A stretch of 10,116 nt of DNA from a virus (lineage: Duplodnaviria; Heunggongvirae; Uroviricota; Caudoviricetes). Below the pieces are notes generated by a model, which saw nothing but the letters and a program-made list of their open reading frames with translations, searched no databases and was not told where the DNA came from. The position numbers and the translations under genes are program-made. The DNA lies in IMG/VR virus record IMGVR_UViG_2531839265_000009, positions 1-10,116 of that record; one strand, given 5' to 3'. Below are positions 1-10,116 of this stretch, in pieces. The first letter of the stretch is position 1. Every line of letters starts with the position of its first letter.

Positions 1-426
1 TTATAGATAGACCTCATCTATCAATCCCGTGCACACCTTCCCAAAAAAAAGTTTTCGAACCTGCGGCGATGTGAACAAGGGTAGGCGGGCGGTCCTGGGC
101 AGCCGGGGTTGCAAGGATTTGATCCGCCCCTCCCACCAATATTTATCGCCGTAACCGCTCCGGCTTCTTCCACTGGTACGTAATTTTTCTTTCTCCTGGT
201 ACATCTGCACGCGGCGACGGTACGACAACATCTCCAGAACTCTGGTGCGTATGTTGCGCATATCCACGCCGTTAAGCTCGATACCGTCACGGCGCATCAC
301 CTCAGCCACCACACGCGCGTAATTTCCGGCTATCACGCTGTCCGGCTGCGTGGCCTCCTGTTTGCCTGCTGCCTGGCTGGCTCCGGTAACGCGGCGAATC
401 ATTTTCAGCATTTCGGCTTCGGTCAT
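1..426 (-). CDS. hypothetical protein (141 aa from ATG 426; frame stays open to TTG at 456)
   Basis: Minus-strand ORF with TAA stop at 3..1. In-frame ATG at 426..424 lies 8 nt downstream of GGAGG (439..435). The N-terminal ~95 aa look like an ordinary helical protein; the C-terminal third is Arg/Pro-rich and overlaps a second open frame (21..290), so an undetected frameshift is possible. No family recognised. Confidence 0.45.
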   Translation of the reverse strand: MTEAEMLKMIRRVTGASQAAGKQEATQPDSVIAGNYARVVAEVMRRDGIELNGVDMRNIRTRVLEMLSYRRRVQMYQEKEKLRTSGRSRSGYGDKYWWEGRIKSLQPRLPRTARLPLFTSPQVRKLFFGKVCTGLIDEVYL

Positions 427-708: not shown

Positions 709-1149
709 TTAGCTTTCCTGCTCTGTAACTACAGATTGTTGCAGATGCTCACGGCGAACGGCTACGGCATGACGCCACCCAGCCAGAAAGCCGGCCATTT
801 TATTTCGTGCCTTGCTCACGTCTTCCGGTGAGTAGCCGTAAATCTGCAGACCATTATCAAATCGCTGTTCTGTTTCTTCACTGAAAGACTCGTCGCGCTC
901 TGATGAAATCAACCTGGCAACCATAATCTTTTCCAGTGCGCTGGTTTCTCCATGGTGCTCAATAGCCTCAAGATGGCTTTTACCCATGCACCAGAATAAT
1001 GTGTGTCCGATGTGATAACCGCCGGACTTTCCGCGATCCGCATCAAGATACGGCATGCCCTGTTTGGTCCATGCGCGAATAGTGGTTCTGTTGACCTTGA
1101 AATGTTCTGCTATTTCCTGCTGACTCACAAAACAATCTTTATTATTCAT
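709..1149 (-). CDS. Nu1-like terminase small subunit-like protein (winged-HTH DNA-binding N-terminus); possible packaging-redirection factor
   Basis: 146-aa ORF. N-terminal segment QQEIAEHFKVNRTTIRAWTKQGMPYL resembles the lambda Nu1 N-terminus KKQLADIFGASIRTIQNWQEQGMPVL as I remember it. AAGGT RBS about 7 nt upstream of ATG 1149. Confidence 0.7.
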   Translation of the reverse strand: MNNKDCFVSQQEIAEHFKVNRTTIRAWTKQGMPYLDADRGKSGGYHIGHTLFWCMGKSHLEAIEHHGETSALEKIMVARLISSERDESFSEETEQRFDNGLQIYGYSPEDVSKARNKMAGFLAGWRHAVAVRREHLQQSVVTEQES

Positions 1150-2021: not shown

Positions 2022-3076
2022 TTAACCAATTTTCACGGTAACAAATTTGCGGATATCTGCCGGAACCGGTTGCGGTGCGCTGTGCGTCTGCACGTACTCA
2101 ATCGCCGGATCGCCTGGCTCAATCCAGTTTTTCGGGTAGTACATATTTCGTGTTGTGCCAGTTCTTACCGCGTCCTGATCCATAATTGCCCCATAGGCTA
2201 CCAGTCCTTTATTGCTGGTGTTCCCCAGAACAAGCAAATCAGGATCAAGAAAATGTTTTCTGTGCCGTCGCTGTCGGTGTATTTACCGGAATAAACAATA
2301 AGCGCCAGATCTCCCAGGTAGCCTTTAAAGCTCACCACTTCGCCCAGGTTTTTACACGCCAGCTCTGCCGCAGACTCTGACCCCCGGGACAAATCATAAA
2401 GTTCCCGGAATTTTTTAAAGCTGCGTAACAATCGCCAGGCATTCGCCCCCATAATCATGACGTTCGCGGGGCACTCAGCCTGTTCGGTATACAGTTCAAT
2501 ATCATCTGTCGGATCATGCGTCTCTTTATCCTGCTCAGACCATTTTTTCCCTGGCCCCTGCTGGATAATGCAGTTTGCTGGCATCCTCCAGTCGATTTCG
2601 TAGCGTTCTATGCCTTCGCCCTCAATGATATTTTTTCCGGTAGTGACTGCATTTACCGCCAGCCATTCAACACGGGCTTTGATGGCTTTTACCTGACGGC
2701 GAAGATTGCCGGTAATGAGGCGGAGGCGACGATAAGACGGGCTGTTGAGTGCTGCCGGATCTTCACCAGCAACACGCATAATGGTTTTTGATGGATCGAT
2801 TTCGTGTTTTGGCTTCATGTAGCCAGGCTGGATAATGCTTGTTTCGTACCCTTTATCACGCTGAACCTGACTACCCACCATCGGCGAACAAAATGCCGAC
2901 ATGGTTACTTCGTCATTTTCCAGATCATCTAACATAATCTTCTGTGTATCGAAGGTTGCGACGTTAGGGAAAAATAACGTGGTAAACAGCGGATTGAATT
3001 TAAAATCATCAACATCAGGACGATTCAGATAGGAAAAAAGCTGGTTTGTGTTCAGTGGTTGCGCCTTATCTGTCAT
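2022..3076 (-). pseudogene. major capsid protein, lambda gpE-like, interrupted by a 1-nt frameshift near 2250 (pseudogene or homopolymer sequencing error)
   Basis: ORF 2198..3076 matches the lambda gpE N-terminal and central regions (KFNPLFTTLFFP vs KFDPLFLRLFF; GYMKPKHEIDP vs GYVKPKHEVNP; THDPTDDIELY vs TYDPTDDIEAY). ORF 2022..2237 in another frame matches the gpE C-terminus (VLGNT..., YPKNWIEPGDPAIEY...). The frames switch at minus-strand gaaaacattttcttgat; one extra T would restore ...ENIFLDPDLLVLGNT.... GGGGGTGAG RBS upstream of ATG 3076. Confidence 0.8.
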
Positions 3077-3458
3077 TACTCACCCCCATGAGGCTGATTC
3101 ATACCAAGCGCAGCGCGTAAATGACTGCGTACCATCCAGCCGACTGACGGCTTCACCATGCACAACGGATCAAGGCCGATTTTTTTCCTGCCTCTGCGTT
3201 CTCCTCAAAGCGCGCATTAAGTGCGGCGATAATATCGGGGCTGATGTACACGGATACACCGCCCGGCTTCTGTGTTCCCATAAATGAGATTCCTCTTTGA
3301 CTAAAAACAAACATAACGAAAAGTCAGTCATGATTTTAATCATCGTTGCATTTTTTGCAATGATATTGACTGTTGTTGCAAATCATGAAATTATCATGCC
3401 GTGGTTTTACTCCTTGTACCACAGACTCATTCAGCATTAATCACGTTAGCGGCATGAA

Positions 3459-3492
3459 ATCCCCCGGAACCACATCCCGGGGGATTTTTTTT
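3459..3492 (+). terminator. plus-strand rho-independent terminator (no plus-strand CDS upstream; possible sRNA terminator)
   Basis: ATCCCCCGG (3459..3467) / CCGGGGGAT (3477..3485) 9-bp stem, followed by a T8 run on the plus strand. Confidence 0.6.
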
Positions 3493-3497
3493 GCGCA

Positions 3498-3524
3498 CAA
3501 AAAAGCCGGGAAAAATCCCGGCTT
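3498..3524 (-). terminator. minus-strand terminator downstream of ssb
   Basis: AAGCCGGGA (3503..3511) / TCCCGGCTT (3516..3524) 9-bp stem with a 4-nt loop. On the minus strand it is followed by TTTTGTG, a short U tract. It lies about 15 nt after the ssb stop. Confidence 0.5.
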
Positions 3525-4218: not shown

Positions 4219-4412
4219 CTCCCCACTTTTACTACCCACTTTTTGAAATTACCCAACGTCTCCCCACTTCTTTTTTTGTGATTCTAACGTGATGTTTTTC
4301 AATGTATTTTTTATTCCCCACTTTTTGGGGTATATACAGGTGGGAAAGTGGGGAATCGCGTTTCAATTTTGTTAAATTCCCCACACTCCCCACTTTTACT
4401 ACCCACTTTTTA
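4219..4412. repeat. iteron-like repeat cluster with AT-rich spacer; candidate origin of replication
   Basis: 26-bp direct repeat CTCCCCACTTTTACTACCCACTTTTT at 4219..4244 and 4386..4411. Additional CCCCACTT(T) copies at 4262..4270 and 4316..4326. An inverted pair TTCCCCACTTT (4314..4324) / AAAGTGGGGAA (4345..4355). An AT-rich stretch at 4271..4315. The cluster lies immediately 3' of the helicase gene. Confidence 0.6.
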
Positions 4413-5783: not shown

Positions 5784-5820
5784 TTTGTCGTGCGGCTGTT
5801 TTTTAAGTTCGGTGCCAGTT

Positions 5821-6190: not shown

Positions 6191-6334
6191 TTAACAGAGT
6201 GCTGAAAGCAGAAAATAAATCCCCCCCTGTTCGGCATGAACTTCGGTTAATTTAATTAATACCGCTTTCATTTCCAGTGCCCGATTTAATGCATTCTCAG
6301 AATGAATAAGAACATCGAAAGGGATTTCATTCAT
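6191..6334 (-). CDS. hypothetical small protein (47 aa)
   Basis: My own translation from ATG 6334..6332 gives MNEIPFDVLIHSENALNRALEMKAVLIKLTEVHAEQGGIYFLLSALC, stop TAA at 6193..6191. It is below the ORF-track length cutoff. Its start overlaps the stop of the upstream gene (ATGAATGA) and shares the start context GGTGAGCCATG with that gene. Confidence 0.4.
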   Translation of the reverse strand: MNEIPFDVLIHSENALNRALEMKAVLIKLTEVHAEQGGIYFLLSALC

Positions 6335-6791
6335 GGCTCACCACCTCCGGGAATTTTCTTCTGTAACGCGCCTCTGCAACATATTCCGCATAGTCCGACG
6401 CAATATTGAGAATATCCACACCCTCTGCCCTGTAGCCACTGGTACTGATAAGGAAAAATGCGGCTTTCATCATGTCGGCAACGCATAACAACGCATCGCC
6501 GGTGTGTTCTGGTGCGCCATCAAATTCCTGTTTCAGGGCATTAAAACGATCATCACGCATAACCCCCCCATTTTCACAATCAGCAATCAGGATGGCTTTA
6601 GCCTCATTCAGTGCCATATCAGCGGTAAGCTGTGCGTAGGCCAGCGAATGGGGGATTATTGCCCCTGTATACTCCGGCTCTCTGCTAATGTGTTTTTCCG
6701 CGGTTGCTGCCGTGCATGAAATATTAATCAGCGCGTGCATCAGCGTTCTGATAGCTTCGGCGGCTGCGTCCGGACGGGTGTTATTGCACAT
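6327..6791 (-). CDS. hypothetical protein (154 aa)
   Basis: Open frame with GGGGGTGAG RBS and start ATG 6791..6789. Overlaps the upstream gene by 11 nt and the downstream small ORF by 8 nt. No family recognised. Confidence 0.55.
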   Translation of the reverse strand: MCNNTRPDAAAEAIRTLMHALINISCTAATAEKHISREPEYTGAIIPHSLAYAQLTADMALNEAKAILIADCENGGVMRDDRFNALKQEFDGAPEHTGDALLCVADMMKAAFFLISTSGYRAEGVDILNIASDYAEYVAEARYRRKFPEVVSHE

Positions 6792-8414: not shown

Positions 8415-8454
8415 AAAACAGTACTCACCGTTTTAAAACGGTACTCACTGTTTT
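8415..8454. promoter_or_regulatory. two tandem 20-bp imperfectly palindromic repeats upstream of alpA (candidate operator)
   Basis: AAAACAGTACTCACCGTTTT at 8415..8434 and AAAACGGTACTCACTGTTTT at 8435..8454, differing at 2 positions. Each has inverted ends AAAAC.G / C.GTTTT around TACTCAC. Confidence 0.55.
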
Positions 8455-8482
8455 TATCTCATTGATTACGCTTTCTTTTTGC

Positions 8483-8874: not shown

Positions 8875-10116
8875 TTACACGGCACGGATACCCCTTTTAC
8901 CACTGGCTATGGTCACTCCGGTAGCTGCGGCCTCTACAAATTCCCCCCACCAGCGCATAAGCACCACGCGCTTTTCCAGGTAGTTACTTCGGTTATATGC
9001 TCGCCTTACCTCGTTCGTGTCCACGTGTGCGAGTGCGGCCTCGATTACGTCCGGCTCGAATCCTTCCTCGTTCGCTGCTGTACTGAATATGGCGCGTAAT
9101 CCGTGAGACACCAGCACACCAGCGTATCCCATCCGGCGCAATGCAGCGTTAGCGGTCTGGCTGCTCATTGGCAGCATTGGATTTTTAAGGCTGGGAAAAA
9201 CATGTTCCCTGTGTGCGCTGATTGGCTTCATTGTTTCCAGTACAGCCATCGCCTGACCGCAAAGAGGGATCACATGGTCACGGCGCATCTTCATGCGTCC
9301 GGCTGGAATCGTCCATGTTTCGGCATCGAGATCTATTTCTTCCCAGCGTGCGGCGGCTGCTTCGGCTGGGCGTGCTACGGTCAGCAGTTGCCACTCAATC
9401 AGCAATCTGGTTTGCCGTTCTATGCTGGCGACCGATAAATCGTGCATTAGCTGCGGTAGCTGTTCCGGTCGGATGGTTGGCATATGCTTTTTAGTGGGAG
9501 AAGGGAATGCCTTGCGGACGTTCGCTGCGGTGTTGATGTCAATCAGCCCACTGTTGGCAGCAAAATCCATCACTTCATTGATGCGTTGTAAAACGCGTTT
9601 CAGAGTTTCCAGGTTGCCACGCGCTTTAATGGGGGTGAGTATCTCGACAAAGCGGCGAGCGGTGAGGGTATCTATTGGCGTTTTTCCGATGTACGGGAAT
9701 ACGTATTTTTCCATGGATCGCCAGATATCCTTAATCGTGTTGTAAGCCAGATTCTGGCCTTTTTTCATCTCGTACCAGTCCGAGGCAACTTTTTCGAACG
9801 TGTTGCCCTTTTTCCTGCTCTCTGCTTCACGTTTCCGGCGTTCGTAGTCCTGTGGGTCAGTTCCCTTTGCTATGAGTGACCTGTATTCATTCCGTCGCTC
9901 TCTGGCATCAGACAGGGAAACATCATTTAGCGATCCAAGGCTGATAATAGTCCGTTTTTTATCTGCCGGGCGGTAGTACGTAAAACGCCAGATTTTTGAT
10001 CCGGAGGGCTTCACCAGAAGAAATAATCCTCCGCCATCCTGCAGGGTATATTCCTTTTCCCCTGGTCGTGCGTTTTTGATCTCCGTAATAGTTAGTGGGG
10101 GGGTTTTTCGTGCCAT
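8875..10116 (-). CDS. int: tyrosine site-specific integrase, P4-family (prophage CP4-like)
   Basis: 413-aa ORF. N-terminus YTLQDGGGLFLLVKPSGSKIWRFTYY is the typical P4-type integrase arm domain. C-terminal catalytic region contains the HGLR box (VSHGLRAIFSTAA) and a downstream Tyr (RRAYNRSNYLEKR). The ATG is the last three bases of the window, so its RBS and the attachment site lie outside. Confidence 0.95.
   Translation of the reverse strand: MARKTPPLTITEIKNARPGEKEYTLQDGGGLFLLVKPSGSKIWRFTYYRPADKKRTIISLGSLNDVSLSDARERRNEYRSLIAKGTDPQDYERRKREAESRKKGNTFEKVASDWYEMKKGQNLAYNTIKDIWRSMEKYVFPYIGKTPIDTLTARRFVEILTPIKARGNLETLKRVLQRINEVMDFAANSGLIDINTAANVRKAFPSPTKKHMPTIRPEQLPQLMHDLSVASIERQTRLLIEWQLLTVARPAEAAAARWEEIDLDAETWTIPAGRMKMRRDHVIPLCGQAMAVLETMKPISAHREHVFPSLKNPMLPMSSQTANAALRRMGYAGVLVSHGLRAIFSTAANEEGFEPDVIEAALAHVDTNEVRRAYNRSNYLEKRVVLMRWWGEFVEAAATGVTIASGKRGIRAV

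Follow-up and report, generated by a model that had tools for sequence, protein, structure and literature searches.

A small gene ahead of the capsid gene in an EcCICFT073-type phage satellite, very probably split by a homopolymer under-call

RppC ('redirecting phage packaging') is a protein of phage-inducible chromosomal islands (PICIs) that redirects the small terminase of the helper phage. Slippery sequences of the form A_AAA_AAG/A are known from dnaX and from IS elements. The closest described relative of the element treated here is EcCICFT073, the prototype PICI of E. coli, for which induction and packaging by a helper phage have been shown (PMC6092414). Its genes c1499 and c1500 encode a capsid and a decoration protein, and neither is needed for interference or transfer (PMC6092414). 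Engineered islands in which cargo takes the place of c1498-c1501 still transduce (PMC10530653, PMC10460865).

The window, that is, the whole stretch of 10,116 nt that was analysed, is, judged by its genes, an EcCICFT073-type PICI, a phage satellite of E. coli. An integrase gene lies at one end, AlpA (PF05930) and an own replication module are present, the size is ~10 kb, and lysis and tail genes are absent. The order on the minus strand is integrase (8875..10116), an 80-aa ORF, AlpA, an Icd-like gene, small ORFs, a DUF4222 gene, a RepA-family helicase (AAA_25), an 83-aa ORF, SSB, a 68-aa gene, a lambda-E capsid gene, a lambda-D decoration gene, a 115-aa ORF, a 146-aa protein and a 94-aa ORF. 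Three of these carry the assignment to type.

2022..3076, minus strand: lambda E-type major capsid gene (PF03864, Phage_cap_E, E=3.8e-49; 351 aa in relatives)
Downstream of the capsid gene, minus strand: lambda-D-type decoration protein (PF02924, HDPD, 3.1e-16)
709..1149, minus strand: 146-aa RppC homologue (PDB 6hlk/6hn7, E=7e-34)

The RppC homologue and the CFT073-like gene order point to the EcCICFT073 type, and the RppC homologue indicates an Rpp-type cos PICI. This places the window with confidence among the E. coli phage satellites of the known EcCICFT073/Rpp family. In relatives (cited below by L numbers), the insertion site is tRNA-Pro, between yejM and yejO. In L001 and L002, P2-like baseplate genes (V, W, J) and not yejO are found beyond the 94-aa ORF of the island, so these copies adjoin a prophage or lie inside one.

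EcCICFT073 has a gene order equal to that of the window, and it also has a 68-aa ORF upstream of c1499 (WP_000796960.1; L014 7007..7213). This ORF has the same length as the small gene of the window, is coupled to the capsid gene by the same TAATG and shares a conserved upstream region. It also occupies the same slot, with the replication/SSB module on one side and the lambda-E-like capsid gene on the other, and the two proteins are ~63-66% identical. The islands differ in that EcCICFT073 has a P4-type primase, not a RepA helicase, and is integrated next to phoQ instead of at tRNA-Pro between yejM and yejO. A further difference lies within the small gene itself. Where the window has a run of A residues, the CFT073 gene reads GGC ATT GCG GCA GGA (GIAAG), without a homopolymer.

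The small gene of the window and its surroundings are laid out as follows.

3076..3281, minus strand: small PICI gene, 68 codons in relatives, split in the window
3303..3307, plus strand: A5 run, read as T5 on the gene strand, within the small-gene leader; a run of 6 in relatives
3296..3291, minus strand: Shine-Dalgarno sequence AGAGGA, its AGGA ending 9 nt 5' of the ATG at 3281..3279
3281..3153, minus strand: 42-aa ORF in the 0 frame, by translation
3180..3186, minus strand: A7 tract (plus-strand T7); A8 in near-identical islands
3153..3155, minus strand: premature TGA in the 0 frame, met owing to the missing base
3186..3079, minus strand: -1-frame continuation with stop TAA at 3078..3076, by translation
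3074..3078, minus strand: TAATG overlap of the small-gene TAA (3078..3076) and the capsid ATG (3076..3074)

The original prediction described a minus-strand ORF beginning at ATG 3281..3279 with AGGA about 9 nt upstream, an A7 run just ahead of its stop codon, and a -1 frame open as far as a TAA that overlaps the capsid ATG. All of this is confirmed by reading and translation. In the 0 frame, translation of the minus strand gives MGTQKPGGVSVYISPDIIAALNARFEENAEAGKK, next SALIRCAW, and then the TGA at 3155..3153; the -1 frame gives IGLDPLCMVKPSVGWMVRSHLRAALGMNQPHGGE, which ends at the TAA at 3078..3076. Two figures in the prediction are partly corrected. A 68-codon product agrees with relatives, but the shorter product, put at about 44 aa, has 42. 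The gene span of 3077-3281 is right in its start, but with the stop codon included the gene ends at 3076. An intact 68-aa protein aligned with the window by tblastn produces two HSPs in two frames, and the restored 68-codon product is MGTQKPGGVSVYISPDIIAALNARFEENAEAGKKIGLDPLCMVKPSVGWMVRSHLRAALGMNQPHGGE.

ATG 3281 is the true start of the small gene, since the N-terminal M-x-x-x-K is kept in the family and a 207-nt RefSeq gene starts from the same ATG. The shortened leader run at 3303..3307 brings an upstream ATG, at 3314, artificially into frame. The overlap TAATG, which is kept in CFT073 and in RefSeq relatives, provides coupling between the small gene and that of the major capsid protein.

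The source of the window is established by identity. Over 9281 nt it is 100% identical to L015 (GCA_000243195.1, JH594563.1), the assembly of E. coli 4_1_47FAA, whose HMPREF locus tags mark it as an early Human Microbiome Project draft. There the 42-aa product is annotated as EHP64199.1 (HMPREF0986_03833), and the neighbouring shortened capsid is HMPREF0986_03832. Near-identical islands from four independent assemblies (L026, L027, L029 and L034) were reached via the integrase of the window. They differ from it by 0-3 substitutions over 8.9-10.1 kb and by 7-10 indels each. These indels fall at 10 distinct sites, all of them homopolymers, and the window is always the shorter; expansions were not observed. 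The sites are listed with the run in the window, the run in relatives and the location.

184-188: T5, T6 in relatives, in hyp94
1662-1669: C8, C9 in relatives, intergenic
2256-2259: T4, T5 in relatives, in the capsid gene
3180-3186: T7, T8 in relatives, in the small gene
3303-3307: A5, A6 in relatives, in the leader of the small gene
4271-4277: T7, T8/T9 in relatives, intergenic
5799-5804: T6, T7 in relatives, in the RepA helicase gene
6221-6227: C7, C8/C9 in relatives, in hyp69
6563-6569: C7, C8/C9 in relatives, in hyp154 (fused ORF)
8451-8455: T5, T6 in relatives, intergenic

Measured against L001, the rate of contraction climbs with the length of the run: 0/71 at runs of 4, 1/45 at 5, 2/12 at 6, 1/2 at 7 and 2/5 at 8. 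At 8-mers the under-call rate in this assembly is 25-40%. Searches with intact proteins (tblastn) find five genes split in the window: hyp94, the capsid gene, the small gene, the RepA helicase gene and hyp69. Thus T4 at 2256..2259 turns the 351-aa capsid gene into a 292-aa ORF plus a tail, and the 292-aa product occurs on one contig only, that of the window assembly, as against hundreds with the intact form. T6 for T7 at 5799..5804 strips the first 6 codons from the RepA-family helicase, T5 for T6 at 184..188 splits the 94-aa terminal ORF, and C7 for C8 at 6221..6227 splits the 69-aa ORF; these three genes are intact in L026, L027 and L029.

A pattern that is contraction-only, length-dependent and nearly substitution-free, with ~1 indel per kb, is the signature of homopolymer under-calling, and mutation is an unsuitable explanation because a genome with ~1 indel per kb would not be viable. 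The likeness to under-calling in flow-based or otherwise error-prone sequencing extends to every feature, that is, restriction to homopolymers, dependence on length, contraction only, almost no substitutions and several conserved genes split, and no point of difference is seen. Flow-type chemistry is inferred to be the cause; a literature search by the strain name 4_1_47FAA returned nothing on the sequencing method. An origin in a mismatch-repair-deficient mutator was considered and ruled out, as the indels are contractions only, there are essentially no substitutions, and such a density would be lethal genome-wide.

The poly-C run at 6563..6569 lies in a minus-strand ORF at 6327..6791. C7 in the window fuses two ORFs into one of 154 aa. 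The run is C8 in L029, L034 and L003 (79+81 aa) and C9 in L026 and L027 (86+77 aa). The variation is thus found between islands that are otherwise near-identical and is not confined to the faulty assembly. The run could be truly hypervariable, or generally hard to sequence.

The A7 tract of the small gene is best explained as an assembly artefact in which one base was dropped from A8 in an ordinary 68-codon gene that undergoes no recoding; the probability of this reading is put at about 0.92. The E. coli 4_1_47FAA draft would systematically under-call homopolymer runs, and the real sequence at 3180..3186 would then almost certainly have eight A's on the gene strand. A8 would give a single 68-codon gene translated conventionally from ATG 3281. 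This gene would be the first of the capsid/packaging operon, and TAATG would couple its translation to that of the lambda-E-like capsid gene. Of the two explanations offered by the original prediction, that of a second homopolymer indel within the operon has turned out to be the right one: the capsid gene is broken as well, and relatives with A8, A7G or GGG-A6-G at the tract all have a single uninterrupted 68-codon gene.

The comparison with homologous islands, suggested at the outset as a check, does find the uninterrupted 68-codon gene, and this outcome counts against programmed frameshifting. Among complete E. coli genomes, 22 were found by megablast with 2900..3500 as the query. In the alignment with relatives, the A7 of the window is matched by A8 and the T5 in its leader by T6. 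In L001-L003 the RefSeq annotation has a 207-nt gene ('hypothetical protein') without interruption, whose end falls on the capsid ATG. A single ORF is present in all 13 of the RefSeq relatives fetched: eight have A8 (KKIG), three have A7G (KKVG) and two have GGG-AAA-AAA-GTC. T8 at the site of window 3180..3186 is found in L026, L027, L029, L034 and L001. In L003, L004 and L012 the tract is A7G and the frame is kept, which indicates that the eighth position of the tract is an ordinary coding base. Among public contigs, the intact I-allele (KKIG) is on at least 1397 (at least 1000 plus 397) and the V-allele (KKVG) on 232 (137 plus 95).

Shorter and longer tracts do occur. The 42-aa form is on 7-11 public contigs, and length variants jointly make up <1% of alleles. 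The exact 42-aa product is also on ~10 other contigs, which derive from unrelated samples (three ENA metagenome assemblies and six Logan run assemblies). Islands with A7 (L016-L024) represent at least four sequence backgrounds, and in them the small gene is the only split one among the reference proteins tested. L020 shows an independent event, A7G to A6G. An A9 allele (GKKNRP, 37 aa) and an A6 allele (GKNRP, 36 aa) are each on one contig. These variants fit a slippage-prone A8 run, whether biological or technical, and several of them may themselves be errors.

The recurrence of A7 in independent and otherwise clean assemblies, on at least four backgrounds and with the small gene alone split, together with the existence of A6G, A9 and A6 variants, can be taken to suggest that the base is really missing in 4_1_47FAA. 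The A8 run would be a hot spot for slipped-strand mutation, and a dispensable PICI gene would have been inactivated or phase-switched. Since the module is not needed for mobilization, the element would still transfer. The experiments with EcCICFT073 agree with this, as deletion of c1499 or c1500 has no effect on transfer or interference (PMC6092414) and islands with c1498-c1501 swapped for cargo are still transduced (PMC10530653, PMC10460865). Yet the tract is one of 10 contraction-only differences, set against 0-3 substitutions, between the window and four near-identical islands, and about one indel per kb across the genome marks the pattern as technical. A real A7 has a prior of <1% of alleles, as against the under-call rate given above for 8-mers in this assembly. 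In the gene region the window has 0 SNPs relative to the A8 islands L001 and L026, its closest, whereas it has SNPs relative to the A7 island L018, and so there is no sign of descent shared with a real A7 lineage. A genuine mutation in the strain is accordingly judged quite unlikely. A separate question is whether the tract (GGA-AAA-AAA-ATC), apart from the artefact in the window, is a genuine natural slippage hot spot. Its alleles might switch the first gene of the capsid operon on and off, or they might be tolerated because low-level -1 slippage on A_AAA_AAA remakes the exact wild-type protein; this reading as a whole is judged unlikely. Phase-variable (contingency) tracts are similar in that a coding A8 has A6, A7 and A9 variants on several backgrounds. 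They are dissimilar in that the variants here are <1%, the family as a whole lacks a conserved tract and there is no evidence of on/off selection.

The other explanation in the original prediction was a programmed frameshift on A_AAA_AAA that yields a shorter and a 68-aa product. It is considered here in the form of -1 ribosomal frameshifting or transcriptional slippage, with the 42-aa 0-frame and the 68-aa trans-frame products made in a set ratio. The motif was correctly recognized. The heptamer (GG-A AAA AAA-TCG) fits the canonical X_XXY_YYZ pattern and stands in the phase that a -1 shift requires, a -1 slip on A7 would give back exactly the wild-type peptide ...GKKIGLD..., and a GAGG sits just upstream. 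In the A-rich heptamer, its phase and the short ORF, the site resembles those of dnaX and IS elements. Unlike them, it has no conserved stimulatory stem-loop, no correctly spaced SD-like element and no conserved two-ORF arrangement. Folding of the 50-101 nt downstream does not exceed that of dinucleotide shuffles (z +0.13 to +0.73), the window gave no match in Rfam, and the GAGG, which is the only SD-like element, ends 4 nt before the heptamer, against a spacing of ~10 nt in dnaX. SALIRCAW, the extension in the 0 frame, is not a conserved peptide, and what would be the 'trans-frame' product is in relatives just the ordinary product of the gene. At a programmed site the arrangement that requires frameshifting would be the conserved majority. 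Here it is rare, with the gene split on 7-11 contigs and intact on at least 1600, and a single ORF is found in all four near-identical islands as well as in every RefSeq relative fetched. The A-run is missing, moreover, in CFT073-type, Salmonella and more distant members. Programmed production of two products is thus unsupported, and it is considered extremely improbable. Should a real A7 template exist, some leaky slippage on it is chemically plausible, and low-level -1 or transcriptional slippage could then yield some full-length protein, which would be leakiness and not a programmed signal.

With the dropped base as the preferred reading, the apparent recoding site, the split capsid gene, the shortened RepA helicase and the two further split ORFs are all under-calling products of one old draft assembly. 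None of these breaks should be counted as a pseudogene, a recoding signal or a sign of island decay. The sole residual curiosity is that tracts of other lengths recur, at low frequency, in other assemblies.

The restored protein retrieves 18 clusters, and every one is continuous across the tract site. Both halves are kept in one frame, with YISPDI in the N-terminal part and GLDPL ... PS.GW.VR..LR in the C-terminal part. Diverged members have GIAAG, GAKVG, GLKVG or LAKVG at the tract site and consequently no A-run. The protein is a full-length match to phrog_3255 (unknown function; E=7.8e-25). Only 13 clusters came out of a profile search that covered 1.84 billion representatives, and by these comparisons the family appears narrow and without a link to any known family. 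The restored protein has no Pfam match at E<=0.1, and a search of genome contigs with it confirmed no relative. It has no match by tblastn among GenBank phages, which suggests that the protein is specific to satellites or prophages and is not a bona fide phage gene. A 67-aa homologue is found in L032 (16789..16992), an island variant with the same integrase and the same insertion site, where it lies directly 5' of a gene for a ClpP-protease/HK97-type capsid fusion. Its presence beside a different type of capsid indicates that the small protein goes with the operon and not with one capsid type. The phrog_3255 protein is thus a conserved first gene of the capsid/packaging operon, variants with a different capsid type included, and represents a modest target for functional work.

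The AlphaFold model made with a more diverse alignment (pLDDT 79.8) has an extended N-terminus and helices at residues 15-34, 39-42 and 47-58. A search of PDB sequences with the 68-aa protein gave chance matches only, and no structural neighbour was found. The pattern of a strand, PDI and a helix, followed by PS and a helix, resembles that of ribbon-helix-helix proteins, and weak Pfam matches to that clan were obtained with two of 12 family members (BrnA_antitoxin 0.017, RHH_1 0.2). Alignment with Arc and CopG by hhalign gave probabilities of <1%. With low confidence, a DNA-binding or regulatory role can be suggested, possibly ribbon-helix-helix-like, with either the morphogenesis operon or the helper phage as the target of this small protein. 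A narrower working guess, tentative and quite possibly wrong, is that the protein is a small dimer that binds DNA and regulates the morphogenesis operon.

The region upstream of the small gene has two elements that bear on the boundary of the operon.

3360..3333, minus strand: promoter-like TTGCAA-16-TAAAAT, by consensus match only
3328..3397, minus strand: leader with TTGCA-type inverted repeats, in a region common to CFT073 and L032

The first is the probable start of the capsid/packaging operon, and the leader is a candidate operator/promoter of the capsid operon. Farther upstream, at 3457..3487, between the SSB gene and the small gene, there is a perfect 11-nt palindrome (AAATCCCCCGG / CCGGGGGATTT). 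A plus-strand T8 run overlaps the end of its second arm. The palindrome is probably a terminator that parts the replication operon from the capsid operon.
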